In this document: one piece after another, positions 4,826-44,364 of the stretch
How positions within the stretch are numbered: the first letter of the stretch is position 1
Layout: each line of letters starts with the position of its first letter
Assembly: GCA_965541615.1 (NCBI GenBank)
Contig: CBEUCJ010000003.1
Span: forward strand, 32,186-96,185
Reading direction: 5' to 3'
From: an uncultured bacterium
GTDB lineage: Bacteria > Omnitrophota > Gorgyraeia > Duberdicusellales > CBEUCJ01
Length of the DNA: 64,000 nucleotides
Notes under the pieces: generated by a model
The model's input: only the letters and a program-made list of their open reading frames with translations
Told to the model about the DNA's origin: nothing
Databases searched by the model: none
Position numbers and translations under genes: made by a program

Positions 4826-5181
4826 GTCACATTAATAGTTACTTTTCTACAGGTAGTGTTTGTAGAAGAGACTGTATAATTGCGTGAATAATTAATATTA
4901 TCTATAACTACATTACCTGCTGTATGCAAACCCAAAGACAAATCTCCTTTACCTGTACTCCACCAATCTTCTCTTACATCATCATATAAACTTTCCAAAA
5001 CTTCTCTTGCCAACTGAGTAGCCTGTAATCTATGTAAAGACCTTAAATTTAATTTTTTTACACTCAATATTGCACTTACCAAACCCACAAATACACTAGC
5101 TGTTATTAAACTCCCCATAAGGACTTCAGTTAAAGTCAATGATTTTTTATTTTTATTAGGGAAGAGGTTCATTTTTTTCAC
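4819..5181 (-). CDS. Minor pilin / pseudopilin
   Basis: NKKSLTLTEVLMGSLITASVFVGL after a 13-aa leader. 4-nt overlap with the neighbouring genes. Confidence 0.5.
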   Translation of the reverse strand: MKKMNLFPNKNKKSLTLTEVLMGSLITASVFVGLVSAILSVKKLNLRSLHRLQATQLAREVLESLYDDVREDWWSTGKGDLSLGLHTAGNVVIDNINYSRNYTVSSTNTTCRKVTINVTW

Positions 5182-5506
5182 TTAGAATATCTTTTGCTGT
5201 TCCTATATATTTAGCTTTAACTTGCCAAGGGTTCTTTACTACTTGAAAATCCCAATTTTCAGAAGAGATATCCAATTTTAATTTTGCATTACAATCTGAA
5301 GTATTACTACATGTTACATAACTCCCTGTCTCCAACTTGCATATTTTCTCAGCTTGCTTAATCAACTCCATTAGGGTATCAGCTTCTCTTTCAATGGAAT
5401 TTACCACAGCTTTTCTGTAAAGAGGAATAGAAATACTTGCTAAGATAATTATGATGAGTATTACTATCATTAATTCTAGTAAAGTAAATGAAACTTTCCT
5501 CTTCAT
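5156..5506 (-). CDS. Type IV prepilin-like protein
   Basis: MKRKVSFTLLELMIVILIIIILASISIPLY. Canonical N-methylation-site motif with Ser at -1 and Glu at +5. Confidence 0.65.
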   Translation of the reverse strand: MKRKVSFTLLELMIVILIIIILASISIPLYRKAVVNSIEREADTLMELIKQAEKICKLETGSYVTCSNTSDCNAKLKLDISSENWDFQVVKNPWQVKAKYIGTAKDILSEKNEPLP

Positions 5507-5508
5507 TT

Positions 5509-5859
5509 TTAATACACTGTAATTAAACCTTCTTTATTTATTTGAACATGCAAATTCTGATAAGGTGATCTTTGTTTGATAGCAGTTACTGTAAAACTAT
5601 TCACATTTCCACTGAAAGTGTAATTCCAATCTTGGTTAGAGGGATTAGAAATATCTAAATCTTGCCATCCTGTTGGAAATGTTTCCTTATCTTCTATGCA
5701 TCTTAAAATAGAGGCTCTGATTTGATGAAGTACTGCTTTGGCAGAAGCTATTAAGGCTTTCTTTAACTGAGTTCTATATATAGAAAAACCTATTCCCACC
5801 AATATAAGAATTATAATTATGGTTACTATAATTTCTATTAAAGTAAAACTCCTCCTCAA
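5509..5859 (-). CDS. Type IV prepilin-like protein
   Basis: MRRSFTLIEIIVTIIIILILVGI. Confidence 0.7.
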   Translation of the reverse strand: MRRSFTLIEIIVTIIIILILVGIGFSIYRTQLKKALIASAKAVLHQIRASILRCIEDKETFPTGWQDLDISNPSNQDWNYTFSGNVNSFTVTAIKQRSPYQNLHVQINKEGLITVY

Positions 5860-6239
5860 AAGCTCTCTACCTTACTTGGCTTTATTTTCATTTTATAGTT
5901 TCTACCACCAGTCTTAGAAGTAGCTATTATCTCGGCAGCGTCAGGATTGGAGGGGTTATTTACCTTATAAGTAAAATGTTTACTTTCAGAAGGGAGTCTT
6001 ATACCTGTGTTCTTTTCTAAAGCATTAAAGTCTGAAGTAAAAAATCCATTCTCAGCATGATAGATAATTTCAGCTTTTCTTATCAGCTCCATCATAGAAG
6101 TCGCCTCTGCTTTTCGAGCTTTTTCTACAGCCTTTTTATACTGAGTTACTCCAAAACTTGCCAATATAGAAATAGTTACTATTACTGTAATTAATTCTAT
6201 AAGAGTAAAGCTATCTCTCTTACAAATTATTTTCATCAA
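5856..6239 (-). CDS. Type IV prepilin-like protein
   Basis: KRDSFTLIELITVIVTISILAS. Confidence 0.7.
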   Translation of the reverse strand: MMKIICKRDSFTLIELITVIVTISILASFGVTQYKKAVEKARKAEATSMMELIRKAEIIYHAENGFFTSDFNALEKNTGIRLPSESKHFTYKVNNPSNPDAAEIIATSKTGGRNYKMKIKPSKVESF

Positions 6240-6657
6240 TGTCCCAAGTATTATTTATATAATTGTAATCTATGACTCGAGCTCCACCTTTTGCTTTGTT
6301 ATTTACATACAGGTGGGAAGAATTAGAGGTATAATTTGCATAATAGTATCTATTTCCATCGCCATATTTTGCTCTAAGACTAACTTTAATATCGGTCTCA
6401 CCATCACTATCTACATCTAAACTTAAAAGTTGAGTAGAAGAGCCATTAAAGCTTTCATTATAATAATTTCCATTTATTTGATAATAAAGTTGCAAAGCTT
6501 TCCCAATCTCTTTTGCTAAATCCATAGCCATAGATTTTCTTGCTCTTAAAACTACTTTGTAATAAGTAGCTACTCCTATTGAAGCTAATATGGCTATGAT
6601 TAAAATAACTGTGATTACTTCTGCTAACGTAAATCCTTTTTTTCTACAAAAAATCAT
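6220..6657 (-). CDS. Type IV prepilin-like protein
   Basis: RKKGFTLAEVITVILIIAILASIG (Gly at -1). Confidence 0.7.
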   Translation of the reverse strand: MIFCRKKGFTLAEVITVILIIAILASIGVATYYKVVLRARKSMAMDLAKEIGKALQLYYQINGNYYNESFNGSSTQLLSLDVDSDGETDIKVSLRAKYGDGNRYYYANYTSNSSHLYVNNKAKGGARVIDYNYINNTWDIDENNL

Positions 6658-7049
6658 TACTTAGGTATTAAAGGATGTGTTCCTCCTATTTGTCCAGTTT
6701 CATTTATTGTCACAGTTTTATTTTCATATCTTCCTCTTCGTCTCGTAGCAGTTGCAATAAAATTACTCGTACTATTCGTAGTAGTAATATTAAAACTCCA
6801 ATCAGTATCATTAACTTTTGCTACTTCGGGCACTTCTTCACTAAGATCAGACAAACTGGTTGTATAATTATCATAAAGAGAATGATAAATGGCTTCTGCC
6901 TTTCTTATCATATCTAATTTAGAAATAGCTGCTGAAACTTTCGCTCTTTCTTGAACTTTTATAAATTGAGGAATAGCTATAGCTGCTAAAATAGCTATGA
7001 TTATAATTACTATTGTCAATTCTGCTAAAGTAAAACTTTTCTTTATCAT
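6657..7049 (-). CDS. Type IV pilin (candidate major subunit)
   Basis: MIKKSFTLAELTIVIIIIAILAAIAIPQF. C-terminus GQIGGTHPLIPK is paralogous to the next gene. Confidence 0.7.
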   Translation of the reverse strand: MIKKSFTLAELTIVIIIIAILAAIAIPQFIKVQERAKVSAAISKLDMIRKAEAIYHSLYDNYTTSLSDLSEEVPEVAKVNDTDWSFNITTTNSTSNFIATATRRRGRYENKTVTINETGQIGGTHPLIPK

Positions 7050-7116
7050 TCTCTAACCTCCTCTTTTAAAACTATGATATTTTTATTATTCCATTTAAAT
7101 ATACCACAAAAAAACA

Positions 7117-7524
7117 TCATCTTAAAGGATGAGTGCCTCCAAATTTTCCAGTCTCATTTATGCTAATAACATAACCTGCATATTCACTTTCACCTATTCT
7201 TTCAGCCTCTGCTAAAAAACTTTTGTCATCAGCATAAACTATAGTATATTTCCAGTCTTCATCGCCCAAAATTTTTTCATTTAATTCAGGAACCTCTTGT
7301 GCCAATTCTTCAAAATCATCTGTATAGGTATCATATATTGAAAAGTACATACTTTCAGCTTTTTTAATAAGATTTAACTTAACTTTTGCAGAGGTAACTT
7401 TTGTTCTCTCTAAGAATTTCTTATATTGAGGTAAAGCTATACTTATTAATATTACAATAGCTACAATTACAATTACTAATTCAATAAGAGTGAAACTTCT
7501 TTTTTTAAAAGAAAATAAATTCAT
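7117..7524 (-). CDS. Type IV pilin (candidate major subunit, paralog of 6657..7049)
   Basis: KKRSFTLIELVIVIVAIVILISIALPQY. C-terminus GKFGGTHPLR. It is the first pilin gene after the platform gene. Confidence 0.7.
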   Translation of the reverse strand: MNLFSFKKRSFTLIELVIVIVAIVILISIALPQYKKFLERTKVTSAKVKLNLIKKAESMYFSIYDTYTDDFEELAQEVPELNEKILGDEDWKYTIVYADDKSFLAEAERIGESEYAGYVISINETGKFGGTHPLR

Positions 7525-8735
7525 TTACCTCCCAAAGTAGCTAACCTAAATATTGGTAAATACATTGCAATTACTAATGTACCTACAAAACCACCAATAA
7601 TTACTATCATTGCAGGCTCAAATAAAGCAATAAACCTTGCAATCTTTGCTTCTATAATTTTGTAATAATACTCTTGTATCTTTTTAAACATACCTGTAAG
7701 ATTCCCAACTTCCTCTCCTATCCTTATCATTTGAACTACCAGAGGTGGAAAATAATCAAACTTTCCTAAAGGTGCGTTTAAAGACTTCCCCTTCCTTACG
7801 CTTTCTTTTACTTCTTTTATTATTCCCTTCAAAACAGTATTTGTAGCTGACCTTTCGCTAATCTCTAGAGAATATACAATTGGAACTCCAGCCTCTAAAA
7901 GTGTAGCTATCTCTGAAGAAAACCTCTCTAAAGAAACTTCTTTTAAAAACGTCCCCAATAAAGGAATTCTTAATGTAATTCTATCAAAGATTTCTTTCCC
8001 TGTAGGTGTCCGAATAAATTTATAAAAGAAAAATAATATCATAGGGATTAATATCAATAATACAAGCCATGCCTTTCCTACAAAACTACTTACTTTAAAA
8101 AGCAACTTAGTCAAGAAAGGTATCTTTATATTGAATTCTGAAAATATTGTTTTAAATTTAGGTGTAATTATTAAGATAAAAAAAGCTACAGCTCCTATTG
8201 CTATAAAAAAGAGTATTGTAGGATATAAGAGTGCTGTTATTATCTTTCTCCTAAATTCTAATTTTTGTTCTAAATAATAAGCTAATCTTTCTAAAACTAA
8301 AGCTAAATTTCCTGAAGCTTCTCCTATTTCTACTAAACCTACCCATAAATCTGAAAATACTTTTGGAAACTTTCTAAGAGCATCTGAAAAACTGCTACCT
8401 TTCTCTACTTCTATCTTTATCCTTTCTACAATCTGTTGCAATTTAAAACTACCTATCTGAAACTTACAAATCTCTAAAGCTTTTACTAAAGTAACTCCTG
8501 CACTTATCATAGTAGCTAACTGATAAGCAAACATTAATAGATCTGTAGCTCTTACAGTTCGATGAGTAAATCTTTTCTTCTCTTTTTTAAAAGAAAGTGC
8601 AAGGGGTGTTATTTTTATAACTATCAATCCTTCCTCTCCAAGTCTTTTTACTAATTCCTCATAAGAATCTGCTTCTTCTATATTAACTACTTTTCTTCCT
8701 TGCTTATCTCTTGCAAAGTATTTGAAAAGTGGCAT
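7521..8735 (-). CDS. Type II secretion / type IV pilus inner-membrane platform protein (GspF/PilC/MshG family)
   Basis: 404 aa. Two T2SSF-like repeats with 3 TM segments. C-terminal ...IFRLATLGGK region is conserved in GspF/PilC. Confidence 0.85.
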   Translation of the reverse strand: MPLFKYFARDKQGRKVVNIEEADSYEELVKRLGEEGLIVIKITPLALSFKKEKKRFTHRTVRATDLLMFAYQLATMISAGVTLVKALEICKFQIGSFKLQQIVERIKIEVEKGSSFSDALRKFPKVFSDLWVGLVEIGEASGNLALVLERLAYYLEQKLEFRRKIITALLYPTILFFIAIGAVAFFILIITPKFKTIFSEFNIKIPFLTKLLFKVSSFVGKAWLVLLILIPMILFFFYKFIRTPTGKEIFDRITLRIPLLGTFLKEVSLERFSSEIATLLEAGVPIVYSLEISERSATNTVLKGIIKEVKESVRKGKSLNAPLGKFDYFPPLVVQMIRIGEEVGNLTGMFKKIQEYYYKIIEAKIARFIALFEPAMIVIIGGFVGTLVIAMYLPIFRLATLGGK

Positions 8736-8746
8736 AATTTAAAATT

Positions 8747-10450
8747 TTACAAAGCTACTCTTAATACCTCTTCTAAGCTTGTTACTCCCTCTTCTACTTT
8801 TTTTATGCCACTTTCTAATAAAGTTCGCATTCCTGCTTTTTTAGCTTCTTCCCTTATAAGATGGATACTTTCATTCTTAGAAATCAACTCTTTCAATGGC
8901 TCATCTACAAATAAAATCTCTGCAATTAAAGTTCTATCTTTATATCCTATATTTTTACATTCTTTGCATCCTTTAGCTTTATAAATTATATCTTTATTTA
9001 TGCTCACTTTCAATTCTTTAAGAATATCTTTCTCAACTTCATAAGGCTGCTTACAGTTAGGACATAGTTTTCTAATTAATCTTTGAGCGACTATACATGT
9101 TAAAGAAGCACTCACCAAATAAGGAGGTAAACCTATATCTATCAATCTAGTTATAGCTGAAGGTGCATCGTTTGTATGCAAAGTAGAAAGAACCAAATGT
9201 CCTGTTAACGATGCTCTAACACAAATTTCTGCTGTCTCTAAATCTCTAATCTCACCTACCATTATGATATCTGGGTCTTGTCTTAAAAAATGTCTTAAAA
9301 CTCTCGCAAAAGTCAATCCTATTTCAGGTTTTACTTGAACTTGATTTATTCCCTCTAATTTATACTCCACTGGATCTTCTACAGTTAAAATATTTTTTTT
9401 AGGAGATTTTATCTCATTTAAAATTGCATATAAAGTAGTGCTTTTCCCAGAACCAGTAGGACCTGTTAATAAAACTAATCCCCATGGAGAAGTAATCACT
9501 TTTCTCAATATTTTCAACTCTTCACTAGTAAACCCTAAGTAAGCTAAATCCAAAGGTACTCTGGACTTATCTAAGATTCTTATAACTACTTTTTCTCCAT
9601 AAATAGTAGGCACTGTTGAAACTCTCAAATCTATTATCTTATCTCCTTTCTTAACACTAAATCCACCATCTTGAGGTAATCTCTTTTCTGCTATATCCAT
9701 CTTAGAGAGAATCTTAATACGAGAAACTATAGGCAAATGCATGTGTTTAGCAGGTGAAGGAATCTCATACAAAACACCATCTATTCTATATCTTATTCTC
9801 AATCTATCAAAAAAGGGTTCAATATGAATGTCTGATGCCCTCTCTTCTATAGCTTCATTTAAGATTAAATCTACTAATCTTACTACCAAAGCCTCTTCTG
9901 CTTTCTCTACTAACTTATCTACACTTAATTCCTCCTGAGGAGGTGTTTCGGTTTTTGTCACCTCTTCTAAATCTACATCATAAGTAGATTCCACTGCTTT
10001 CTTTAAAAAATCTATTTTTCCATAAAATTCCTCAATAGATTTCAATATGTCTGACTTTGTAGAGACTACCAGATTTATTTGGCAACCAGTTAATTTCTTT
10101 AAATTATCTATTAAATCAAGATCTAAAGGATCTGAAATAGCACATGTAAGAGTATCTCCTTCTTTATTTAATGGTAAAACTAAATTTTTAACCGCTTCTT
10201 CTTTTGGAATTAACTCTTCCAATTTTTGATGAGGGTTGGGTTTTAAAAGGCCTGAAGAATAGGAAAGAAAAGGAAGATGTAGCTGTTCACTTAAAGCTCT
10301 CGCTAAATCCTCTTCTTTAATTATACCTTTTTTTATTAAAATTTCTCCTAATCTACCTCCCTCTTTCTTTTGAATCTCCAAAGCTTCTTTTAAGTTCTTT
10401 TCTGAAATTAACCCTTTTCTAATTAAAATTTCTCCTATTTTATCTTTCAT
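8747..10450 (-). CDS. GspE/PilB/MshE-family assembly ATPase with tandem MshEN c-di-GMP-binding motifs and C-terminal tetracysteine
   Basis: Walker A GPTGSGKST. Asp box and His box (LSTLHTND). CPNC...CKEC zinc motif. N-terminus KIGEILIRKGLISEKNLKEALEIQ-KKEGG-RLGEILIKKGIIKEEDLARALSEQ. Confidence 0.9.
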   Translation of the reverse strand: MKDKIGEILIRKGLISEKNLKEALEIQKKEGGRLGEILIKKGIIKEEDLARALSEQLHLPFLSYSSGLLKPNPHQKLEELIPKEEAVKNLVLPLNKEGDTLTCAISDPLDLDLIDNLKKLTGCQINLVVSTKSDILKSIEEFYGKIDFLKKAVESTYDVDLEEVTKTETPPQEELSVDKLVEKAEEALVVRLVDLILNEAIEERASDIHIEPFFDRLRIRYRIDGVLYEIPSPAKHMHLPIVSRIKILSKMDIAEKRLPQDGGFSVKKGDKIIDLRVSTVPTIYGEKVVIRILDKSRVPLDLAYLGFTSEELKILRKVITSPWGLVLLTGPTGSGKSTTLYAILNEIKSPKKNILTVEDPVEYKLEGINQVQVKPEIGLTFARVLRHFLRQDPDIIMVGEIRDLETAEICVRASLTGHLVLSTLHTNDAPSAITRLIDIGLPPYLVSASLTCIVAQRLIRKLCPNCKQPYEVEKDILKELKVSINKDIIYKAKGCKECKNIGYKDRTLIAEILFVDEPLKELISKNESIHLIREEAKKAGMRTLLESGIKKVEEGVTSLEEVLRVAL

Positions 10451-11928
10451 CTTTCAAATCTTTTTAAAGCTTCTTTTATAGCTCTCTCTTTCTCTCCTAA
10501 AGATTGTTCTCTCTGAAGAGCGAAAGTAAATTTTCTTTGAAATAATTTTGGCCACATTATCTTAGGAGTAATGAAAACTAACAACTCTCTCTCCTTTTTT
10601 TCTTTCTCTTTATGTCTAAATAAACTTCCTATCAGAGGTAAGTCTCCTAATAATGGTAAATGAGTTACTTTTTCCTCTACTTTATTTCTAATCAATCCAC
10701 TTAACACAACTGTCTCACCATCTTTTACTGTTAAAACAGACTTAAAGATCCTTTTTTCTGGATCTTTAAGTGTCTGAACACTTTCTTGAGTAGTTAAAGT
10801 AATAGGGGAAACTACTGCTTCAGAGACTGTGGGTACAATTATCATAGTAATCTCACCTGTCTCCAAATTCACTTGAGGAGTAACTCTTAAAGTAACTCCT
10901 GTCTCTGTTCTCTCAGGCTCTTCACTAACAGCCTCTTCAGTAATAGTAACTTTCTTTCCAATTGCTTCATTTCGAATAATCTTAATTTCTGCTGTCTCAT
11001 TACTTAAAGTTAAAATTCTAGGTCTAGCTAAAAATTTAGTGCTCGCATCTTTCCTAATAAAATCCAACATCATAGAAAAATTTGCAAATGAAACTTCTCC
11101 TAATGTAGGTTTTCCTGCTTCTACTCCTTTCATTAATCTTGAAGGAAAGGGGAAATGGGTGTATCTGGCCGGTCCTTTAAATGTAAAAATAGTCTCTCCA
11201 TAATTAAATCCTAATTTATCTAAAAGTTCTTTAGAAACATCTAAAATTTCAGCCTCTATCATCACCTGAGGAACAGGTGTATCTAACTCTTTTATTAACT
11301 TCTCTATCGCTGGAAATCTGGCTGGTCTATCAGTAATAATCAAACTATTTGTCCGAGGATCTTCTACCAATTTACCTACATCAGATAAAAGACCTGTAAT
11401 TGCTTCCTTTAAAGCTACATATCTACTCTCTTCACCACCTTCACTACTTTCTCCTCCCTCACTTTCTTCGCTTTCGCCTTCTTCCTCTTCACCTAACTGA
11501 GAGTTTATCTCTGCATCTAATTTGGAATTTGAAACTCTAGTATACTTTAATCTGTAAACTTTAGTAATAGTCTCTACTTCTGGTTTTCCTAATTCTTTTA
11601 CAATGAAAATATTGCTTTCAGGAAGAAACTCATAAGTAAGGTTATTAGCTTTCAATAAAGAATCAAAAGCTTCTTTTAAAGTGACATTTTCAAAATAGCA
11701 AGTAATTTTTCTTTTTCTAATATTCTCTGGACATATAAAGTTAAGTCCCACCTGTTGAGATAATGCTTTTAGAACATCTATTAAATCAGCACCCTCAAAA
11801 TCCATTGAAACTCTCTTTGAAGGATCTGTTAATAAATACTCTGCATAATATTTGTTGTTAATACCTGCATAACCAAAGTTAAAGTTTAAGAATAAGCTTC
11901 CTATAATAATTATTAAAAAACATCTCAT
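10447..11928 (-). CDS. Secretin (PilQ/GspD/MshL family)
   Basis: N-terminal STN-like DFEGADLIDVLKALSQQVGLNFI. C-terminal secretin core ...LLVFITPKI. Signal peptide present. Acidic low-complexity insert EEEEGESEESEGGESSEGGEE. Confidence 0.85.
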   Translation of the reverse strand: MRCFLIIIIGSLFLNFNFGYAGINNKYYAEYLLTDPSKRVSMDFEGADLIDVLKALSQQVGLNFICPENIRKRKITCYFENVTLKEAFDSLLKANNLTYEFLPESNIFIVKELGKPEVETITKVYRLKYTRVSNSKLDAEINSQLGEEEEGESEESEGGESSEGGEESRYVALKEAITGLLSDVGKLVEDPRTNSLIITDRPARFPAIEKLIKELDTPVPQVMIEAEILDVSKELLDKLGFNYGETIFTFKGPARYTHFPFPSRLMKGVEAGKPTLGEVSFANFSMMLDFIRKDASTKFLARPRILTLSNETAEIKIIRNEAIGKKVTITEEAVSEEPERTETGVTLRVTPQVNLETGEITMIIVPTVSEAVVSPITLTTQESVQTLKDPEKRIFKSVLTVKDGETVVLSGLIRNKVEEKVTHLPLLGDLPLIGSLFRHKEKEKKERELLVFITPKIMWPKLFQRKFTFALQREQSLGEKERAIKEALKRFER

Positions 11929-12287
11929 TTTTCAGCCTCCTTCTTAACAGGAAATATATAGATTCTTCTCTTATACATAATACTTACACCTTCTTTATTT
12001 ATATCTATTATTTTACCTCCTTGTATTTCATCTCCAATCTTATACAGTTGACCATCTATAATTGCACAAGGGAGCGTAGTATTCCAAACTACACCTTCCA
12101 CTTCTATTTCAAAATCTACTTTTTCTGCTCCATATTCTTCCTCCCCTTTGCTTTCTTCTTCATTTAAACTCGGCTCTATCTTTTTAGGAATACAATCTAC
12201 AAAAGGATCTATAACCTTTTTATCTTGTTTAGCATACCCTGTCAAAACAAACATTACTATAAAACTACCTAACCAAAAACATTTCAT
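11925..12287 (-). CDS. PilP/MshK-like small periplasmic pilus-assembly protein
   Basis: Signal peptide. C-terminal beta-domain pattern AIIDGQLYKIGDEIQGGKIIDINKEGVSIMY resembles the PilP C-domain. Sits between the PilO-like gene and the secretin. Confidence 0.4.
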   Translation of the reverse strand: MKCFWLGSFIVMFVLTGYAKQDKKVIDPFVDCIPKKIEPSLNEEESKGEEEYGAEKVDFEIEVEGVVWNTTLPCAIIDGQLYKIGDEIQGGKIIDINKEGVSIMYKRRIYIFPVKKEAEK

Positions 12288-12805
12288 CTTTTGAGTAGTT
12301 CCTTTTTAAATCTAATGGTGGACAATTTTAAATTCACATCTAAAAATGGTCCTTCTGTCTTACTAAGTAATAATTGATCTACATTTATATAAAAATTATA
12401 ATTTTCCAACGTTTCTAAAAATTTAATTAACTCAAAAAAACTAGCTTTTAAATTTACAATCAAACCAATCTTCTCAAAAAATTCATCTTTAGGAAAAGTA
12501 CCCCCTGGAGTAATAAAGGAAGTTCTAATTTGAGGATATTTTTTTAGAATTGAAATGATCATCTCAAGCATATTCTGTGCATCTTGAATAGAAAAATAAG
12601 AGCCTTGAAGATTTAATTCTCTTCTAATTTTCTTTAGCTCTTTTAACAAAAATTTTTTTTCTTCATTTTTTTCTATTTCATCCTCAATCTCGCTTATTCT
12701 CTTTTCAAAAAATACATTTATAAATTTTGTTATAGGATAAACACATCCCAAAATAAAAATTGAAATGATTATATCCTTTCTTTTAAAAATATACTTCATC
12801 TGCAT
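12284..12805 (-). CDS. PilO/MshJ-like bitopic membrane protein
   Basis: Single N-terminal TM, coiled-coil, then a small domain. Lies between the PilM-N fusion and the PilP-like gene, as in T4P operons. Confidence 0.4.
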   Translation of the reverse strand: MQMKYIFKRKDIIISIFILGCVYPITKFINVFFEKRISEIEDEIEKNEEKKFLLKELKKIRRELNLQGSYFSIQDAQNMLEMIISILKKYPQIRTSFITPGGTFPKDEFFEKIGLIVNLKASFFELIKFLETLENYNFYINVDQLLLSKTEGPFLDVNLKLSTIRFKKELLKR

Positions 12806-14250
12806 TCTATTTTAAAGCTAGTAACTCTATAACCTTTATATACTCCTTCTGAAATCTCTTTAAGAATTATCTTATCAAAATAATTAAAAAAATTTTTTCT
12901 TATATTACTTACAAATTTTTTTATTGAATCCATCCGCTCAGATTCCTCTTTAGCATAAGAAAATCCTTCCAAAAAAAGAACACTTCCTTTTTCTTCCTGC
13001 CATACTAAAGATAACCTCTCAATCCAAACACCTTGAGGAAGATTTTTAGAAAGTGCTTTTAAAATCGTGGAAAAAAATTTTTTAGAAGACTTAAAGTATT
13101 CAAATTGAGCTAATATCTTTTTAAACTTTACTTTATCTGACCTTAATTCCTCTATGCTCTTCAAAGCTCTTATTCCCTCTCTTAAAAGACGTCTCTTTAC
13201 TATCTTTAGCTGATTCTTTTTTTCTTTAAATTTGTTAAACTTACCTATAAAGTTAAAACCTGCAATTAAGAAAAAAATAAATGAAGATAAAATAATATAC
13301 TCTTTTCTAAAAGGAATTTCTTTGGATACTTCTACTTTCTTTTCTTCTTTTATCGAAACATTAAAGGAAATTAAAGTTCTAAGAGGGGAAGGTAAAGTAA
13401 CACTATAAGATTTTAATTCTTCTATACTAAATCTCTCACTAAAAATTTTTTCTTCACCTATAAAGTATAAAGGTAAATCAAATTCTTTATTCAACTCTTC
13501 AAAGTAATTTTTATACTTTTCTTTACCAATAAATAATAAACTTTGAACTACTTCTCCTTTATAACGTCTTTGATAGTACTCTAAAGACAATCTTAATTCC
13601 TCAGTAAATCTTTTTAGATCTTCTTTTCTTGAAATCTTAACATCTCTAAAGATACAAGGAAAATGATTACTCAACATTAAAAAACTTGCCTCTTCATCAT
13701 CTATAACTATTACTCCATAAGTCTTTAATCTCTGCATCATCTTTTCTTTCCTAAGATAAAGCAGTCTCCAAAAAGAAACAATAGCTGGTTCTATCTTCAT
13801 CAAATTTAAGTCGAACTGTTTAATCCCTTCTTTAATCTTAGAAAAATCTTTTTTATTCACTCCTACAAAGCACACTTCTGATGTTTTTTCTTTTTTAAAG
13901 ACTCTAAATTTAAAATCCCATAGTAAATCTTCCAATTTGAAAGGTAATCTTCTCTCAGCTTCAAAAGGGAGTGCTTGGATTACTTCCTTTTTAGAAAGAA
14001 AAGGGAATTCAAAGAATCTTATAAGTATAAATTGAGAAGAGAGAGAAAGATATAGTAAAACCTTCTCTCTAACTCTAAATTCTTCTAAAGCTCTCTGAAT
14101 GCAAATATTAAGAAAAGCTGAAAAATCAAGATATTCTTTTGGATTATATTTAAAATTTAATGTATCTTCGATAACATCATTTCTTACTTTACATAAATAG
14201 ACATTGTTATTTGCACTTATATACAAACCTATTTTAATACCTTTTTTCAT
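12796..14250 (-). CDS. PilM-PilN fusion (MshI-like) pilus assembly protein
   Basis: 484 aa. Actin-like N-domain (KIGLYISANNNVYLCKV start). Internal TM (YIILSSFIFFLIAGFNFI) followed by a PilN-like C-part. First gene of the cluster. Confidence 0.55.
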   Translation of the reverse strand: MKKGIKIGLYISANNNVYLCKVRNDVIEDTLNFKYNPKEYLDFSAFLNICIQRALEEFRVREKVLLYLSLSSQFILIRFFEFPFLSKKEVIQALPFEAERRLPFKLEDLLWDFKFRVFKKEKTSEVCFVGVNKKDFSKIKEGIKQFDLNLMKIEPAIVSFWRLLYLRKEKMMQRLKTYGVIVIDDEEASFLMLSNHFPCIFRDVKISRKEDLKRFTEELRLSLEYYQRRYKGEVVQSLLFIGKEKYKNYFEELNKEFDLPLYFIGEEKIFSERFSIEELKSYSVTLPSPLRTLISFNVSIKEEKKVEVSKEIPFRKEYIILSSFIFFLIAGFNFIGKFNKFKEKKNQLKIVKRRLLREGIRALKSIEELRSDKVKFKKILAQFEYFKSSKKFFSTILKALSKNLPQGVWIERLSLVWQEEKGSVLFLEGFSYAKEESERMDSIKKFVSNIRKNFFNYFDKIILKEISEGVYKGYRVTSFKIECR

Positions 14251-21978: not shown

Positions 21979-23502
21979 TTAATCAGCAAGCATTAATACG
22001 GTATAATCTTTTGATAATTCAAGAGGTAACTCTACTTTTCTATAGGTTCTTAAGAAAGGTAAATAAAAATCTTGATAACTCTTCTTAAGCCAAATAATCT
22101 TAGGGTGATAAATCTCTAAAAATCTTTGGATATTTTCTTCGTTTAACACTTTTCCTTCAGGTAAAGATACTAAACTGCATTTTAAAGGAAAGGCATATTG
22201 ATATTCTAAAGTAGCTATCTTATCTTTTGGTTGAACACAAAAATTTAAGTATTCAACCATCTTTTTTCTATGAATAATTTCCTGTCTGATTTTTTTAGCA
22301 TTTTTTAAATAAAATAAATTTGTTTTTAAGATTTCTGGTCCATTGATCAAAAACAGAATTAAAAAAGTAAAATTTAGAAAGAACTTTTTGTGGTTCTCCT
22401 CTAACAAAAGAACTTTTTCAAAAAGAAAAATGCTTGAAATAATAAAGGTAATATAAGGAATTAGAATATATCTATAAATCTCTAACCGAGGTTCCCACCA
22501 CACTGAAATAGAATAAAAAATAAAGTTAATTACACCTATTAAAAACACCAACGAAATCAAGAGATTTTGAGAGTCTCTATTTTTCGATTTTATTTGTGCA
22601 TAGATACCCAAGGGTAATATCCACAGAAAGAAACCTAAATATCTATTAAAAAACCTCATAAATTCTCTCACTTTCAAAAGAGTTGTCTGTATTAGAAGAT
22701 AACTAACCCCCCAAATTGAAAATTTAACGCTTGGACGCAAAATTGGAGTCTGATAAAAATACTCTCCCCCAAATAATCTTGCTTGACCAAAGTATTTAGC
22801 AGCTAATAAATATTCTGGAAAAAATTTATGGCATTTTATAAAACACAGAACTTCATAAGGAAAAAGAATTAAAAACGTTCCTGCACAAAACCAAATAATA
22901 TTTTTAAACCGTTCTTTAGAAAAGAGTTGAAAGAAAATTAAATATCCAAATATATTATAAACATTAGCTACCCTAACTAATGTGACTATGCCCATTATTA
23001 TCCCTATAATAAAAACTTTTTTGAAAGAAAATTTCTTGAATATATAAAAAGAAAGCAATAAAAAAAATAAATGAAGCTGTTCTGTCCATGGAAAAAGAGA
23101 AGTAACAAACATAGTATAATTAAAACTTATAAGCGCACATATAATTAACCGAATTTTTTCAGAAAGAAAATCAAAGATATAATAAATTAAAAGAATATTA
23201 AGATAAGTTATAAACATATTAAAAATCGAAACTGCTTTTATAGTGTTAAAGAGTTTGTATAAAAAACCTGCAATAATGCAAAATATAGGATGCATAAAAC
23301 TGAAAGCTGGATAAGAAGAATCTTTCCAAAATTGATAAAAATTATAGGTAGTTATAAACCCTTTACCCTCAAATAAATTTCTTCCAATATCTAAGTAAAG
23401 GCACGCATCCGGAGAAAGAAATTCTCCTACGAAAATAGGAATTATTCTTACTGAAACTACCAAAAAGAAGATAAAAAAAATCTCTTTAACTTTTTTCTTC
23501 AT
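21979..23502 (-). CDS. ArnT/PMT-like (GT83/GT39) polytopic membrane glycosyltransferase
   Basis: More than 10 TM segments. First periplasmic loop SPDACLYLDIGRNLFEGKG resembles the DE/D-x-Y-x-x-x-A-R motif of polyprenyl-phosphate-sugar-dependent transferases. Confidence 0.5.
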   Translation of the reverse strand: MKKKVKEIFFIFFLVVSVRIIPIFVGEFLSPDACLYLDIGRNLFEGKGFITTYNFYQFWKDSSYPAFSFMHPIFCIIAGFLYKLFNTIKAVSIFNMFITYLNILLIYYIFDFLSEKIRLIICALISFNYTMFVTSLFPWTEQLHLFFLLLSFYIFKKFSFKKVFIIGIIMGIVTLVRVANVYNIFGYLIFFQLFSKERFKNIIWFCAGTFLILFPYEVLCFIKCHKFFPEYLLAAKYFGQARLFGGEYFYQTPILRPSVKFSIWGVSYLLIQTTLLKVREFMRFFNRYLGFFLWILPLGIYAQIKSKNRDSQNLLISLVFLIGVINFIFYSISVWWEPRLEIYRYILIPYITFIISSIFLFEKVLLLEENHKKFFLNFTFLILFLINGPEILKTNLFYLKNAKKIRQEIIHRKKMVEYLNFCVQPKDKIATLEYQYAFPLKCSLVSLPEGKVLNEENIQRFLEIYHPKIIWLKKSYQDFYLPFLRTYRKVELPLELSKDYTVLMLAD

Positions 23503-24682
23503 TCATCAAAATTTTAAAAGCTGTTTCAATTACCTCTTTAGGTTTTATATTTTTTAAACAAGGAATTTCTCCTCTACAGAATAAAGCAGGCTCGGTTCTG
23601 TACATATAAATACAAGGACTACAATCATAATCTAAATAGAATATTTTATGCAAAGGGTCTTTGACTCCATATAATTGAGGTGTTCCCGGACCCCAAATAG
23701 ATATAGAAGGGACTTTTTGCATATAAGCTAAGTGGAAAGGTCCAGAATCATTTGTAATTACCAATTTAGATAAGCTTATAAGTAAAACCAATTCTCTAAT
23801 GTTAAGCTGACCTGCGAGCACCAAAATTTTTTCTTTTGCTTTTGTAGATAGTCCTTTTACTATCTCTTCAACATACAAAGATTCAGCTTTTGTTCCTATA
23901 AAAACTATTCTTATTTTTTCCATTTTAACTAAATTTTCTATCAATTCTACAAAATATTCTTTAGGCCATCTCCTACAACCAGCCAATTCTCCTGCATTAG
24001 GATTTATAACTACCAGGATCTCTTTTTCTTCAACTCCCTTTTCTTTTAATTTTTCCATAAATTTCAATCTTTCTGATAAAGAAAATTCTATCTTTTCTAA
24101 TTCTAAAAGAGTAGTTTTTACATCTATCCCCAGAACTCTACATATCATCTTATAAGATCTCGTAATGTGTTTGGTAGGATTAAAATAAACTGGAAAGTTT
24201 ATAATAGAATTTCTCCACCAAAAAGGAAGATAAAATCCTATTCGCATTTTAGCTCCACTCAAAAAACACATTAAGGTAGAGAATTTAGAAAAAAACTCTA
24301 AATCAATACAGATATCTACACCTTTTACACCGAATTTCATAAGTTGAGAAAAAACGTCTTTTATAAATCTAAATATATTTTTTACAGAAATAGTCCTTAT
24401 TTCATCGCAAATTTTAAGTAGTTCTAAAATCTCTCTACGAGATTCAAAAGTTAAAAAAATAATTTTGCTCTCTGGAAAATGTTCTTTTATCCTTTTCAAA
24501 AAAGGAGAAAACAATACTATACTTCCTATACCAAACCATTTTAAGATTAAAATCTGTTTAGGCTTTTGAGAAACTTTCTCCTTAAATTTAAAAAATTGAG
24601 TTAATTTACACCACACCCCACACATACTACAAAGAGGCAAACCTAACCAGTGATCCAATTCTCTCATTAATTTTATCTTCAT
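23486..24682 (-). CDS. Glycosyltransferase family 9 (heptosyltransferase-like)
   Basis: VITNDSGPFHLAYMQKVPSISIWGPGTP matches the GT9 signature (TxDxGxxHLA). Confidence 0.6.
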   Translation of the reverse strand: MKIKLMRELDHWLGLPLCSMCGVWCKLTQFFKFKEKVSQKPKQILILKWFGIGSIVLFSPFLKRIKEHFPESKIIFLTFESRREILELLKICDEIRTISVKNIFRFIKDVFSQLMKFGVKGVDICIDLEFFSKFSTLMCFLSGAKMRIGFYLPFWWRNSIINFPVYFNPTKHITRSYKMICRVLGIDVKTTLLELEKIEFSLSERLKFMEKLKEKGVEEKEILVVINPNAGELAGCRRWPKEYFVELIENLVKMEKIRIVFIGTKAESLYVEEIVKGLSTKAKEKILVLAGQLNIRELVLLISLSKLVITNDSGPFHLAYMQKVPSISIWGPGTPQLYGVKDPLHKIFYLDYDCSPCIYMYRTEPALFCRGEIPCLKNIKPKEVIETAFKILMNEEKS

Positions 24683-24685
24683 AGC

Positions 24686-25756
24686 TTAAAAATACTTTAA
24701 AAGATGTTTTCTAAAATAATAAGGTTCTTCAATAATTTTGCCCTCAATGGGCTTTAGCTCTTTTAAACCAAAATACTGAGCATATTTCTTTTCTACTCCA
24801 TCACATAGGTAGTAATATTTGCACTTCTTACACTCTTTAGATTTAGTATATCCATACCTTCTAATGGCTTCTATAATACATTCATTTATTAATCTTCTTT
24901 TATTTAAAGAAACTAATCTTTTAAAATCGAGATTTATCATTCCATAAATTATCATTGGAATCCATATCAAAGGAGGATAGTGTTTTTCTAATCTCACCCT
25001 TACATAAGGATCCCATTCAAAAGGATCAAACATTACTTGAAGATGTCCACATATATAATTTTCATAATCTTTGAAAAAACAAAAGGGAACATATCTTATA
25101 TTTATATTCTCTAAGTATCCTCTAAGATAATCACATGCTTCTTTTAAATAGGGAGCAAGCTCTGAATAAGAAAGCACATATTTAGAAAAACTCTTTTTTG
25201 CATGCTTCCAATCATTGACGCTTATAAAGTTGAATTGCTCAGGAGAAAATTGTGTTCCAATTTTAGCTATGGTAAGTGCTTTTTTGTAATTCAGTTTATG
25301 GATTACAGAATTTATTCTTATTTTTATTCCTAATTTTACAGCATTCTCTAAAGCCTTCATCAATCTTGAGAAAGCATTTTTTACCCCTACTATGAAATCA
25401 TGAGAGTGTTCATCATAGCCTTGAAGAGAAAAAAGAGTCTCATTTAACCCTGCATCTTTCAATCTTTTATAATATTCCAAATTTGCTAAAGCTATACCGT
25501 TAGTTATTATACAAATGCTTTTTGCTCCTTTCTTCTTAGCAAAATAAATCAAATCAGGTAAATTTTTATGAAGAGTAGGCTCTCCTCCTGAGAAATCTAT
25601 ATTTTCTATTCCATTTTTCAAAGCAAAAAGAATATCTCTTTTTATTCTCTCTTGAGGAAAATTCGGTTGAGATAAAAATTCTTTATAATAACAAAATTTA
25701 CATAAAGCATTACATTTAAAACCTGTCATGATTTTTACTCTTTTTGTAATCTTCAT
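24686..25756 (-). CDS. Radical SAM protein with C-terminal SPASM/twitch-like Cys cluster
   Basis: CNALCKFCYY (CxxxCxxC). GGEPTL. C-terminal ECKKCKYYYLCDG (Cx2Cx5C). Confidence 0.7.
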   Translation of the reverse strand: MKITKRVKIMTGFKCNALCKFCYYKEFLSQPNFPQERIKRDILFALKNGIENIDFSGGEPTLHKNLPDLIYFAKKKGAKSICIITNGIALANLEYYKRLKDAGLNETLFSLQGYDEHSHDFIVGVKNAFSRLMKALENAVKLGIKIRINSVIHKLNYKKALTIAKIGTQFSPEQFNFISVNDWKHAKKSFSKYVLSYSELAPYLKEACDYLRGYLENINIRYVPFCFFKDYENYICGHLQVMFDPFEWDPYVRVRLEKHYPPLIWIPMIIYGMINLDFKRLVSLNKRRLINECIIEAIRRYGYTKSKECKKCKYYYLCDGVEKKYAQYFGLKELKPIEGKIIEEPYYFRKHLLKYF

Positions 25757-26598
25757 TTTCTAAACCATTCTTTAATAAAACCTTTTAAAGAATACCAAGA
25801 CCATAAAAATTTAAGATAAAAAATTTTTTTCAAGTATCCTTTAAAAAGAAATGTAAAATTGACCCAAAATATACCTTTAAAAGTCAAAAACAAAAAGAAT
25901 ACAACTAAGTGAGGATACTTAAATAAATATTTTTTTGTAAATACACATAGGCCTCTACCATTTCTTATACATTTTTCTTTAAATTCTTGTAAATTTTCTT
26001 CGTGGGAATGAAAGACGATAGCTTTCTTATTATACACATGCTTAAACCCTTTAAGCCTTGCTCTTACTCCTAAATCATTATCTTCCCAACTCGCTAATTT
26101 AAAGCGTGTATCGAATAAACCAACTTTCTTAAATACTTCTCTTTTATAAGCAATATTGCAGGTAGCAAATCTTTTCTGCGGAACATAAACAGACTTCTCC
26201 AGAAGATAAGGAAGAGAGTTTGTGTCTCTTATTAAAGAAAGAATCTTTCCACTCACTATATCTGCAGATTCTGTTTCAAAAGAGTTTATAATCTGAAACA
26301 ACCATTCTGTCGAAGGGACAGCATCATCATCTAAAAAACAAATTATTTGACCTCTACTTTTTTTGATACCCAAATTCCTTGCTTGAGCAGGTCCTTGATG
26401 GGGCTGAGAAAAGATATAAATTTCTAAATTATTTGAGGATTCTTTAATCTTCTCTAACTCCTCAAACCTTTCTAAAGTATCCTTTACTATTATAAGTTCT
26501 ACTTTAGTTTTTATTTTTTTGGTTTGAAAATCTAACTTCTCTACAATTTGAGGCAACAAAGATCTTGGTTTGTAAGTGGGGATAATAATAGAAACCAT
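25753..26598 (-). CDS. GT2 polyprenyl-phosphate sugar synthase-like glycosyltransferase (ArnC/DPM1-like)
   Basis: MVSIIIPTYKP. DDD/DxD region (FLDDDAV). C-terminal hydrophobic anchor VVFFLFLTFKGIFWVNFTFLF. Confidence 0.65.
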   Translation of the reverse strand: MVSIIIPTYKPRSLLPQIVEKLDFQTKKIKTKVELIIVKDTLERFEELEKIKESSNNLEIYIFSQPHQGPAQARNLGIKKSRGQIICFLDDDAVPSTEWLFQIINSFETESADIVSGKILSLIRDTNSLPYLLEKSVYVPQKRFATCNIAYKREVFKKVGLFDTRFKLASWEDNDLGVRARLKGFKHVYNKKAIVFHSHEENLQEFKEKCIRNGRGLCVFTKKYLFKYPHLVVFFLFLTFKGIFWVNFTFLFKGYLKKIFYLKFLWSWYSLKGFIKEWFRK

Positions 26599-41377: not shown

Positions 41378-42199
41378 TCAACAAGAGAGTGTATTTATTA
41401 CTTCTTTTATAAAATCTTTATCTACTTCTAAAAACTTTATTCCTAAAAAATATTCTCCTTTATCGAGCATATTGCATCTTACAACTTGAGCTTTAGCTAT
41501 ATATTCAGAATTTTTAAAAAAGAACTTCACAGAAAGTTCTATTCCTGGAGGGAGGAATACAAAAGTTTTAACTCCCATTCCTTTCCCACTTTGGGATATG
41601 TCACATACAGTAGCTGAAATAGGAGCAGAAGAAATTAGTCTTATCCTGCTATCAGTAACCTTTATTTCTACAGGAAGATTTGCCTGTAACCTCTCTGACT
41701 CTCTACAAAAAATAAAATTAGATTTAGAAGAATAAGAATGAGTTAAGTACTCTTCCAAATTATACAACTCATCTTCTGGTCCAAAAAAATTATCTATTGC
41801 TTTTAAGATAGTTGTTGGTAAAGAAAATAGAGGAAAAACTTCTAATTCTGTTTTTACCTTTAGTTCTTTTATAAGATCAGCTTTTAAAGGATTAGCCATA
41901 GCTATAAAAAGAGTATTATCTACTTTAAAAAGTGGCACTAATAGATTTTCTCTATAAAATTCTTCAGAGAACAAACTCATTAATTCAGGATTAAGTTTGT
42001 AATCTGAAAGTCTTACTAAAGGAATCTGTGTCTGTTGGGCAAAGAAAGTATAGATATCTTCTTCAGTTAAATACCCTAACTTTATAAGTGTAGAAAATAA
42101 TGATTTTTTTATTTTTTTTTGTTCTTCTTTAGCTCTTAAAAGCTGTTCTAAAGTAAGATGAGTTTGTCTTAACAACCTTTCCTCTAAATCTTTTCTCAT
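41378..42199 (-). CDS. MshEN-like (T2SSE_N) domain fused to C-terminal PilZ domain; putative dual c-di-GMP receptor
   Basis: N-terminus DLEERLLRQTHLTLEQLLRAKEEQ-KKIKK-SLFSTLIKLGYLTEEDIYTFFAQQ (24+5+24 architecture). C-terminus RESER...DISQSGKGMG plus GIKF (PilZ RxxxR, DxSxxG). 4-nt overlap with the receiver gene. Confidence 0.55.
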   Translation of the reverse strand: MRKDLEERLLRQTHLTLEQLLRAKEEQKKIKKSLFSTLIKLGYLTEEDIYTFFAQQTQIPLVRLSDYKLNPELMSLFSEEFYRENLLVPLFKVDNTLFIAMANPLKADLIKELKVKTELEVFPLFSLPTTILKAIDNFFGPEDELYNLEEYLTHSYSSKSNFIFCRESERLQANLPVEIKVTDSRIRLISSAPISATVCDISQSGKGMGVKTFVFLPPGIELSVKFFFKNSEYIAKAQVVRCNMLDKGEYFLGIKFLEVDKDFIKEVINTLSC

Positions 42200-42753
42200 T
42201 TTTCTCCTTTTGGAGAAGAATATTTTCTCACAAATTGTGTAATTATCTCACAAATTTTTTTCTCATCTAACTTCACAGAAGTATTAGAAACAATATCAGG
42301 ATACTTTTCTTTAAGATCTCTTATCCACTCAGCTTGCTGACGAGCTATTTGTAATAAGAGTCTATTTTCTTTTAAAACTCTGTAGTAATCGAAAGCATGT
42401 TTTAAAAGAATCTTTAATTCTTCTGGATCTATAGGTTTTGTTATGTAACGCCAAATGTGAGCTTTGTTTATTGCCTCCATTGCACTGTTCAAATCTGGAT
42501 ACCCAGTAACGAGTATTCTAATGGTATCTGGATAGCGCATCTTTACTTTTAAAAGAAAATCTATTCCAGAGATTCCTGGTAAACGTTGATCACATAATAC
42601 TACCTCTACTTCTCCCTTTTCTTGTAATATCTGCCATGCTTTCTCAGCATTTTCTGCAGTAAAAATCTCTCTTTCTTCAGAAGCTAAAAGCCTTTTTAGA
42701 GAAGTGAGAATATGGGGTTCATCATCTACAATTAAAATAGTGTGTTTAGACAT
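42196..42753 (-). CDS. Response regulator receiver protein with ~60-aa C-terminal extension, no recognisable output domain
   Basis: ILIVDDEPH. LCDQRLPG phospho-Asp. LVTGY. ITKP. Confidence 0.8.
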   Translation of the reverse strand: MSKHTILIVDDEPHILTSLKRLLASEEREIFTAENAEKAWQILQEKGEVEVVLCDQRLPGISGIDFLLKVKMRYPDTIRILVTGYPDLNSAMEAINKAHIWRYITKPIDPEELKILLKHAFDYYRVLKENRLLLQIARQQAEWIRDLKEKYPDIVSNTSVKLDEKKICEIITQFVRKYSSPKGEK

Positions 42754-43574: not shown

Positions 43575-44364
43575 AACTCACCTCCTTTTTAGGTAACACT
43601 ACTGTAAATGTAGCTCCCTTTCTATCTCTGTTTTCTACATCTATTCTTCCTTTATATTTTTTTATAATATCTCTACTTACATACAATCCTAAGCCTGTCT
43701 TTCCTTTCGTAGTAAAGAAGGGATCAAATATCTTTGGTATGATCTTTGGGTCTACTCCTCTTCCTGTATCTGAAATCTTTATATATAAATTTTCATCATC
43801 TTCAAAAGTAGAGATTTCTATTAATCCTCTACCATTCTCTATTGCCTCTGAAGCATTAAGAATTATGTTTAAAAACACTTGACCTAACTCAGTAGAATCT
43901 ACCCATATTTTGTCCTTAGCTTTATAATCTTTTATAATGTCTGCTTTATGCTTAATCTCATTCCACACTGCTCTTATTACACTATCTAAAAGCGTATTAA
44001 CATCTACTAAGGTCTTTTTTCCTCTTGCGCAGTGAGAGAAAAGGAGAAAATCTTGAACTACTCTCCTAATCCTGTAAGCTCCATTTAAACATTCTTCTAA
44101 GATTAAAGGTGCTTCTTCTAATCTTTGTCTTTGCTCAAGATAGCTTAAGAGGAGTTTCAAATTAACGATTAGATAACTTAAAGGATTATTTATCTCATGA
44201 GCTACACCTGCACATAAAGTCTTTAAAGAATTCATTTTTTCTTTATGAATATCATAAGCCTTTCTTTCTCTTTCACTTTTACTCTTTTTTTTATAGAGAA
44301 AGTAAAAGATGACAGCTATTAATGAGAAAGAAATAAAGAATATTAACACCATCTCATTTTGCAT
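43558..44364 (-). CDS. Sensor histidine kinase, minimal (one TM, no periplasmic/cytoplasmic sensor domain)
   Basis: H-box LCAGVAHEINNPL. N, G1, G2 boxes (DTGRGV, GLGL). Confidence 0.8.
   Translation of the reverse strand: MQNEMVLIFFISFSLIAVIFYFLYKKKSKSERERKAYDIHKEKMNSLKTLCAGVAHEINNPLSYLIVNLKLLLSYLEQRQRLEEAPLILEECLNGAYRIRRVVQDFLLFSHCARGKKTLVDVNTLLDSVIRAVWNEIKHKADIIKDYKAKDKIWVDSTELGQVFLNIILNASEAIENGRGLIEISTFEDDENLYIKISDTGRGVDPKIIPKIFDPFFTTKGKTGLGLYVSRDIIKKYKGRIDVENRDRKGATFTVVLPKKEVSYEREL

Follow-up and report, generated by a model that had tools for sequence, protein, structure and literature searches.

The DNA analysed here, referred to as the window, is a stretch of 64,000 nucleotides from contig CBEUCJ010000003.1 (assembly GCA_965541615.1) of an uncultured member of the Omnitrophota. 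It contains four co-directional open reading frames (ORFs) on the minus strand at positions 21979-26598, with exactly the coordinates given in an earlier note on this DNA, which had described them as an envelope glycosylation cluster. In the order of transcription, these genes encode a family 2 glycosyltransferase (GT2), a radical S-adenosylmethionine (SAM) enzyme, a family 9 glycosyltransferase (GT9), and a polytopic membrane protein; Pfam matches were obtained for the first three, while the fourth was recognized as a GT-C glycosyltransferase by the fold of its AlphaFold2 (AF2) model. We propose, with moderate confidence, that the four genes form a conserved cassette for building and tailoring an envelope glycan, which consists of two separable sub-modules and would add a modified sugar to an envelope glycoconjugate. 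The genes are as follows.

25753..26598, minus strand: GT2 glycosyltransferase; 281 amino acids (aa), GT-A domain, one C-terminal hydrophobic segment
24686..25756, minus strand: radical SAM enzyme; 356 aa, member of an uncurated family associated with glycosyltransferases
23486..24682, minus strand: GT9-family GT-B glycosyltransferase of the 'G-x-G-S' clade; 398 aa
21979..23502, minus strand: membrane glycosyltransferase of the GT-C fold; 507 aa, divergent PMT_2 relative whose C-terminus forms a small alpha/beta domain

The junctions GT2/radical SAM, radical SAM/GT9, and GT9/GT-C measure -4, +3, and -17 nt, respectively. Translation recovered all of the motifs cited previously, namely CNALCKFC and CKKCKYYYLC in the radical SAM enzyme, NDSGPFHLA in the GT9, and DDD and the single hydrophobic segment in the GT2.

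Recurrence of the gene order and its two sub-modules

The order GT2, radical SAM, GT9, and a membrane protein of about 510 aa was also found, with unrelated flanking genes, in the loci L001/L002 (two JGI contigs), L003/L004 (an Omnitrophota metagenome-assembled genome, MAG), and L005/L006 (a Margulisiibacteriota MAG). The radical SAM proteins of these loci share, respectively, 68%, 58%, and 50% identity with that of the window. In L005/L006, a gene for a B12-radical SAM enzyme is inserted ahead of the membrane protein gene. The Elusimicrobiaceae locus L082 combines a radical SAM::GT2 fusion, a GT-C, a GT9 with Ser in place of the catalytic Asp (see below), and a second GT-C, with three B12-radical SAM genes interspersed. 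Its recurrence in three or more further lineages, where the flanking genes are unrelated, places this four-gene order beyond chance. Synteny is conserved across phyla, and the contrary case named in the earlier note, a housekeeping radical SAM enzyme with no conserved synteny, was not what we found. The claim that this enzyme is a functional partner of the glycosyltransferases in an envelope glycosylation cluster is supported by the cross-phylum synteny and by covalent radical SAM::GT2 fusions.

The cassette falls into two sub-modules, as follows from the gene contents of four further loci. The first of these, L092, has the same flanks as the window, with DapL-FolK-PanC-NadX on one side and UvrA (67% identity)-TPR-ExbBD on the other. 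Between nadX and uvrA it carries a Ser-type GT9 (41% identity) and two GT-C paralogues, without GT2 or radical SAM. In the Omnitrophota locus L089, a Ser-type GT9 and two GT-C genes are followed by a fusion of a methyltransferase with a polyprenyl-phosphate GT2, RmlA, an RmlD-like gene, and RmlB. A Ser-type GT9 accompanied by three PMT_2 proteins and a methyltransferase was found in the Desulfuromonadales locus L093. Finally, the Schekmanbacteria locus L094 (6823-9179) contains tandem Asp-type and Ser-type GT9s flanked by three B12-radical SAMs, a GT2, and methyltransferases; such a tandem would lend itself to testing whether the two GT9 types have diverged in their roles. The Ser-type GT9 and GT-C form a stable unit, while the GT2 and radical SAM are one of several interchangeable tailoring add-ons.

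Some of these loci encode further proteins. An 81-aa Lys-rich ORF with two near-identical halves (KVGVKRQKGYLYFIDKDGDV... / KVGVDKKDGYLYFLDKQGDV...) lies between nadX and the GT9 gene in L092 (3909-4154); no equivalent of it occurs in the window. Upstream of the cassette, the Omnitrophota loci L003 and L004 (1-1930 in each) encode a giant protein (3086-3090 aa) that contains GH76 and glucan-synthase domains. In the Margulisiibacteriota locus L005 (15324-16945), the tailoring repertoire is much larger than that of the window: besides a second radical SAM gene (362 aa), there are an additional radical SAM fragment, two B12-radical SAMs, and an STT3 homologue.

Relatives of the radical SAM enzyme were searched for among the GTDB species representatives and were revealed in at least 189 of these genomes. 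The lineages represented include Desulfobacterota, Nitrospirota, Nitrospinota, Bdellovibrionota, Planctomycetota, Patescibacteria, and DPANN archaea; among the carriers are the cultured organisms Nitrosomonas ureae Nm13, N. supralitoralis APG5, Halobacteriovorax sp. CON-3, and Thiocapsa sp. KS1. The neighbours were analysed in 83 non-redundant loci using our own hidden Markov models (HMMs), of which the GT2 model is narrow, so that the GT2 counts are lower bounds. A GT2 gene was adjacent or fused to the radical SAM gene in 41 of the 83 loci and located within three genes of it in 50, with fusions in at least seven (L009, L019, L022, L029, L033, L051, and L082). GT2 orthologues are located directly upstream of radical SAM in L001-L016. 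The corresponding numbers within three genes were only 9 of 83 for GT9 and likewise 9 of 83 for GT-C. GT2 and radical SAM are a widespread pair in surface-glycan loci. Other members of the radical SAM family occur amid genes for GT4, UDP-GlcNAc 2-epimerase, GFO/IDH/MocA, and heparinase-like proteins. This is the situation in Nitrosomonas ureae Nm13 (L064:8707-14228), where the radical SAM gene is surrounded by those for a GFO/IDH/MocA oxidoreductase, a heparinase II/III-like protein, and UDP-GlcNAc 2-epimerase, and no GT2 adjoins it. The Nanoarchaeota locus L008 offered no informative neighbours of the radical SAM homologue.

Features of the encoded enzymes

All four proteins belong to known superfamilies. 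On the features tested, however, the GT2, the GT9, and the radical SAM enzyme fall outside the specific families to which they were compared.

The radical SAM enzyme matches PF04055 (E 1.2e-24) and displays both the CX3CX2C motif and the core of this superfamily. Its conserved cysteines are located as follows.

25691..25714, minus strand: radical SAM cluster motif CNALCKFC (C15, C19, C22), residues 15-22; the three Cys are invariant in 48 members
25079-25081, minus strand: C226, invariant in 48 sequences
24803..24832, minus strand: CKKCKYYYLC (C309, C312, C318), residues 309-318, CX2CX5C; invariant in 48 sequences

Besides C15, C19, and C22, exactly four Cys (226, 309, 312, and 318) are invariant across the 48-member family alignment; these are putative ligands of one auxiliary Fe-S cluster. 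SPASM domains contain seven Cys and bind two auxiliary clusters, while Twitch-type radical SAM enzymes, such as BtrN, possess a shortened SPASM domain with a single auxiliary [4Fe-4S] cluster. The Pfam scan gave no match to PF13186 (SPASM), and four additional invariant Cys are enough for one cluster, not for two; the label 'SPASM-like' used earlier was therefore overstated.

No NCBIfam model came near its cutoff for this protein, the weak matches including HxsC4, MoaA, PqqE, and sactipeptide maturases. In profile searches against the PDB, the best match was BlsE (E 5e-28), followed by GDGT-MAS, SkfB, viperins, PqqE, and MoaA. BlsE, a cytosylglucuronate decarboxylase, was also ranked first by Foldseek (query-normalized TM 0.51), with the core alone being matched. 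The identity to BlsE and viperin is about 22% over some 228 to 259 aligned residues, and the scores against the respective NCBIfam models are far from the cutoffs: 67.8 vs 400 (BlsE), 44 vs 450 (viperin, TIGR04278), and 69.8 vs 180 (prokaryotic viperin, NF038283). The C-terminal part of about 130 aa, which carries the four invariant Cys, has no counterpart among PDB structures. BlsE and viperin act on a nucleoside sugar or a nucleotide; by analogy with these nearest characterized enzymes, the window enzyme would be compatible with a nucleotide-sugar substrate.

The GT2 matches PF00535 (E 1.7e-21) and also PF13641 and PF13632. Its conserved features are listed below.

26323..26331, minus strand: DDD (DxD), residues 90-92; D90 and D92 invariant among eight orthologues
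26074..26088, minus strand: WEDND, residues 171-175; E172 and D173 invariant among eight orthologues
25843..25917, minus strand: C-terminal hydrophobic segment, residues 228-252, putative membrane anchor; mean Kyte-Doolittle value 1.85, sequence YPHLVVFFLFLTFKGIFWVNFTFLF

The protein thus comprises a GT-A domain (PF00535) and one hydrophobic segment at its C-terminus, as had been described. The tail motif P229...L262-F264-W266...G273 is kept among orthologues, and this conserved hydrophobic tail is suggestive of an enzyme that acts at the membrane. The accompanying assignment to an ArnC/DPM1-like type did not hold. The top NCBIfam matches, all below cutoff, were EpsD, MftF, HpsN/E, AglG, and PglI, while ArnC scored only 22 bits; in the PDB, the best matches were PglI (9jma) and chondroitin synthase, with DPMS reaching only E 0.005. 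The profile is closest to those of glycan-extending GT2s. In addition, polyprenyl-phosphate GT2s occur as separate genes in related loci, namely as a 226-aa protein in L003 and as the methyltransferase::GT2 fusion in L089. These two match AglJ/PpgS at 64-111 bits and the Dol-P-hexose transferase model at 51-88 bits, as well as ArnC. The ArnC/DPM1 assignment falls because of both observations.

The GT9 shows a match to PF01075 (E 1.5e-24), and its best PDB matches are 3tov (1e-21) and WaaF (1e-11). The NCBIfam equivalog cutoffs were missed for all three heptosyltransferases (HepI, 87 vs 134.6; HepII, 69 vs 170; HepIII, 62 vs 185). Two motifs are of relevance here.

24521..24532, minus strand: GIGS, residues 51-54; Ser54 aligned with Asp13, the catalytic residue of E. 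coli HepI
23726..23752, minus strand: donor-site motif NDSGPFHLA, residues 311-319; aligns with TNDSGpmHv of 3tov/WaaF and vDtGlsHL of WaaC

Asp13 of HepI has been reported to be the catalytic base and to be strictly conserved (bioRxiv 10.1101/2021.06.16.448588). The Ser-for-Asp substitution was shown by HMMER alignments to 3tov, 1psw, and 2gt1 and by a MAFFT alignment with the WaaC N-terminus. It is present in 117 of 121 clade members, that is, the window GT9 and its 120 best homologues, which share at least 33% identity with it over the full length and come from Omnitrophota, Schekmanbacteria, Planctomycetota, Binatia, and Desulfuromonadales. The Ser-type clade as a whole comprises at least 117 protein clusters from Omnitrophota, Schekmanbacteria, Planctomycetota, Desulfuromonadales, and other lineages. 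Its members retain the donor-side motifs NDSGxxHLA and RRW, possess a conserved, partly hydrophobic N-terminal extension of about 40 aa, and have an invariant E129 in a DLE motif. The protein was earlier called heptosyltransferase-like, which stands as far as PF01075 and the donor motif are concerned; it is not a canonical heptosyltransferase, the catalytic Asp being replaced by Ser.

Compared with WaaC and WaaF, the window GT9 is alike in its PF01075 domain, the NDSGxxHLA donor motif of the GT-B fold, the basic RRW segment, and an ADP-heptose 6-epimerase gene adjoining the cassette in the closest relative. It is unlike them in the Ser of its clade at the Asp13 position, the missed cutoffs, the N-terminal extension, and the linkage to GT-C rather than to waa/Kdo genes. 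The epimerase in question, HldD (ADP-glyceromanno-heptose 6-epimerase; 312 bits vs a cutoff of 274.6), overlaps the GT2 start in L001/L002 and is the only direct pointer to heptose. The nucleotide-sugar site is retained in the GT9 and probably accommodates ADP-heptose. Ser-type GT9 genes were located near GT-C genes in eight of nine contexts examined. Within the radical SAM loci, Ser-type GT9s adjoin GT-C genes, whereas most Asp-type GT9s (e.g. those in L010, L011, and L016) do not.

The 507-aa membrane protein has at least eight hydrophobic segments and yielded no Pfam, NCBIfam, or PDB profile match by itself; its AF2 model was assigned to the GT-C fold in a fold search. Only six relatives were retrieved by a word-indexed homologue search, while an exhaustive profile search recovered 75 representative clusters with E <1e-30, beyond which the family merges gradually into a far larger superfamily. 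PF13231 (PMT_2) was matched by 37 of 60 relatives (best 2.9e-15), the window protein itself being without a match. The family-wide Pfam scan and the fold search thus agree with the earlier description of a polytopic GT83/GT39-like transferase, in that the protein is PMT/ArnT-like at the level of the fold. One residue of this protein stands out.

23407..23409, minus strand: Asp32 in SPDACLY, following the first transmembrane helix (residues 2-25 in the model); identical in all 9 sequences of one alignment and conserved to at least 90% in another of 60 sequences

Asp32 agrees with the conserved acidic residue that GT-C enzymes of the PMT_2/ArnT type carry in their first extracytoplasmic loop, and it is a candidate catalytic or metal-binding residue because of its analogy to ArnT, PMT, and PglB. 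The predicted fold suggests that the donor would be a polyprenyl-phosphate sugar; the GT-C scores do not separate a lipid acceptor from a protein acceptor.

Genomic surroundings in the window

The window has a G+C content of about 29%, a strongly negative GC skew over its entire length, and nearly all of its genes on the minus strand. The cassette is embedded in an unbroken co-directional run of minus-strand genes (14963-41259, about 26 kb), in which gaps do not exceed 37 nt. In the order of transcription, the genes upstream of the cassette encode ArgC-J-B-D-F-G-H, LysA, DapF, DapA, DapB, DapL, FolK, PanC, and NadX; those downstream encode UvrA, a tetratricopeptide repeat (TPR) protein, and ExbB/ExbD. 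Such a one-strand run with many 4-nt ATGA overlaps, joining arg, lys/dap, folK, panC, nadX, uvrA, and tol/exb-like genes, is an unusually compact organization.

Two nearby pilus clusters had been noticed before and are indeed present, at 3678-14250 and 44354-54851. Both are of a type IV pilus/type II secretion system (T2SS)-like kind, each with a T2SSE ATPase containing an MshEN domain, a T2SSF platform protein, a secretin, and PilM/PilN-like proteins; both are set apart from the cassette by housekeeping genes. Runs of ORFs of 116-145 aa at 4.8-7.5 kb, without Pfam matches, may encode pseudopilins. A 524-aa ORF without a Pfam match (48884-50458) lies in the stretch of lowest GC content (0.248). 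A 273-aa protein encoded at 41378-42199 combines MshEN, a c-di-GMP-binding domain, with PilZ, and its gene adjoins that of a response regulator (42196-42753). This 273-aa protein could act as a c-di-GMP switch controlling the neighbouring pilus cluster.

Proposed pathway and alternative explanations

For the proposed tailoring cassette, we infer the following donors, acceptors, radical chemistry, and order of steps. The cytoplasmic Ser-type GT9 would use a donor of the ADP-heptose type, and the membrane-anchored, glycan-extending GT2 would add a second sugar. The sugar handled by the GT2 would be modified by the radical SAM enzyme through hydrogen-atom abstraction, which could take place on the nucleotide sugar ahead of transfer or, once transfer has occurred, on the lipid-linked product. 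This step may be a redox tailoring reaction, such as dehydrogenation, epimerization, decarboxylation, or dehydration; if the four-Cys site is an electron acceptor, as is probable, the first three of these would be favoured. The GT-C would move a polyprenyl-phosphate-linked sugar onto an acceptor at the periplasmic face. The final acceptor would most likely be lipopolysaccharide (LPS) or another lipid-anchored glycan, with a protein being possible.

Several observations weigh against this proposal. The neighbours in the window are of the housekeeping type and give no pointer to the function of the cassette, because it sits inside a housekeeping run. No polyprenyl-phosphate GT2 that could feed the GT-C occurs within the window cassette. 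The Ser at the Asp13 position means that the GT9 could be non-catalytic or could employ another base. The likeness of the radical SAM enzyme to BlsE and viperin is confined to a core of about 228 aa, and it does not fix the substrate class since PFL-AE, SkfB, and GDGT-MAS score nearly equally. Finally, no paper on the GT2-coupled radical SAM family or on the Ser-type GT9 clade was found in a literature coverage that is incomplete, so that prior work is possible; a preprint on Omnitrophota mentions radical SAM only in giant proteins, and the match in the Burkholderia literature concerned HpnH only.

The first alternative is a relay similar to the Ara4N (4-amino-4-deoxy-L-arabinose) pathway of lipid A modification, which employs the GT2 ArnC, ArnD, and the GT-C ArnT and resembles the cassette in its overall logic. 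Here, the GT2, like ArnC, would synthesize a polyprenyl-phosphate monosaccharide; the radical SAM enzyme would modify it on the lipid, a step for which ArnD uses hydrolysis; the GT-C would transfer it to lipid A or core; and the GT9 would build the acceptor. The components differ, however: the cassette GT2 is not of the ArnC/polyprenyl-phosphate type, a radical SAM enzyme stands in the place of the deformylase, the GT9 is an integral partner, and analogues of ArnA or ArnB are absent from the cassette. The GT2 scores are those of the EpsD/MftF/AglG/PglI type, with the low ArnC and DPMS values given above and no AglJ, PpgS, or Dol-P-hexose matches. Moreover, L092 retains the GT9 and two GT-C genes without any GT2, most radical SAM and GT2 pairs are devoid of a nearby GT-C, and the GT9 lacks the base expected of a core heptosyltransferase. 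Altogether, such a relay appears unlikely.

According to the second alternative, the Ser-type GT9 would itself be a donor synthase, which moves heptose (or a similar sugar) from ADP-heptose onto polyprenyl phosphate for use by the GT-C, with the GT2 and radical SAM responsible for a tailored residue distinct from this sugar. The GT9 could dispense with a general base because a phosphate nucleophile needs none, which would agree with the loss of Asp13 in 117 of 121 proteins that keep their donor-site motifs. The consistent linkage of this GT9 to between one and three GT-C genes, seen also in minimal clusters that lack a polyprenyl-phosphate GT2 (L092 and L093), the partly hydrophobic N-terminal extension, and the HldD neighbour in L001 point in the same direction. 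However, another base, e.g. the clade-invariant E129, may stand in for Asp13, and L089 has a polyprenyl-phosphate GT2 of its own. We also know of no GT-B or GT9 enzyme that makes a polyprenyl-phosphate sugar, which counts against this explanation. It is derived from sequence comparison and we regard it as unlikely. The joint reading, in which a Ser-type GT9 glycosylates a phosphate (e.g. to form polyprenyl phosphate heptose) and a GT2-coupled radical SAM enzyme performs a new kind of glycan-sugar tailoring, is speculative and quite unlikely as a whole.

A third possibility is O-glycosylation of proteins, be it pilin or some other envelope protein, with the GT-C acting in the manner of PMT or TfpW. 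The GT-C scores leave room for a protein acceptor. The suggestion of the earlier note that the cluster may be linked to pilin glycosylation, however, finds no support: the related cassettes never adjoin pilus genes, and in L092 the nadX...uvrA flanks of the window enclose GT9 and GT-C but neither GT2 nor radical SAM. A pilin-specific system was rejected in the absence of any link between the cassette and pilin glycosylation, and protein O-glycosylation in general is improbable.

Enzymes of hopanoid synthesis were also considered. HpnH, HpnI, and HpnJ provide a precedent for radical SAM enzymes that remodel a GT2-installed sugar on a lipid, and a comparable trio of B12-radical SAM, GT2, and radical SAM genes is adjacent in L003, L005, and L007. 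The B12-radical SAM enzymes of these three loci have HpnJ as their best match, with 139-152 bits, far below the equivalog cutoff. In the window, there is no B12-radical SAM, no squalene-hopene cyclase context was seen, and HpnH is not among the 25 best of 53 NCBIfam matches for the radical SAM enzyme. A hopanoid pathway of the HpnH/I/J kind was set aside, since no equivalog cutoff was approached and no cyclase context was seen.

It is highly improbable that the radical SAM enzyme is a housekeeping cofactor maturase or a maturase of ribosomally synthesized and post-translationally modified peptides (RiPPs) merely located amid glycosyltransferase genes: the weak NCBIfam matches to maturases and the housekeeping surroundings are offset by the failure to reach any curated cutoff, the retention of the GT2 partner across phyla and its covalent fusions, gaps too short for a precursor gene (none had been noticed earlier either), and the lack of an N-terminal RiPP recognition element (RRE) or PqqD-like domain, which is excluded because the radical SAM core begins at residue 6; this explanation was rejected on these grounds.

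The public annotation of these proteins is generic ('radical SAM protein', 'glycosyltransferase family 9 protein'), and defining the families would sharpen the description of many surface-polysaccharide loci. The Ser-type GT9 clade contradicts the published universal presence of the catalytic Asp in this family and could reveal a different acceptor chemistry. If these GT9s do glycosylate a phosphate, their products would be lipid-linked donors of a new class that serve dedicated GT-C transferases. The GT2-coupled radical SAM family is experimentally tractable owing to its cultured carriers in Nitrosomonas, Halobacteriovorax, and Thiocapsa. If the proposed function of the cassette is correct, it would constitute an undescribed route of envelope glycan tailoring common to the mostly uncultivated Omnitrophota, Margulisiibacteriota, and Elusimicrobiota.

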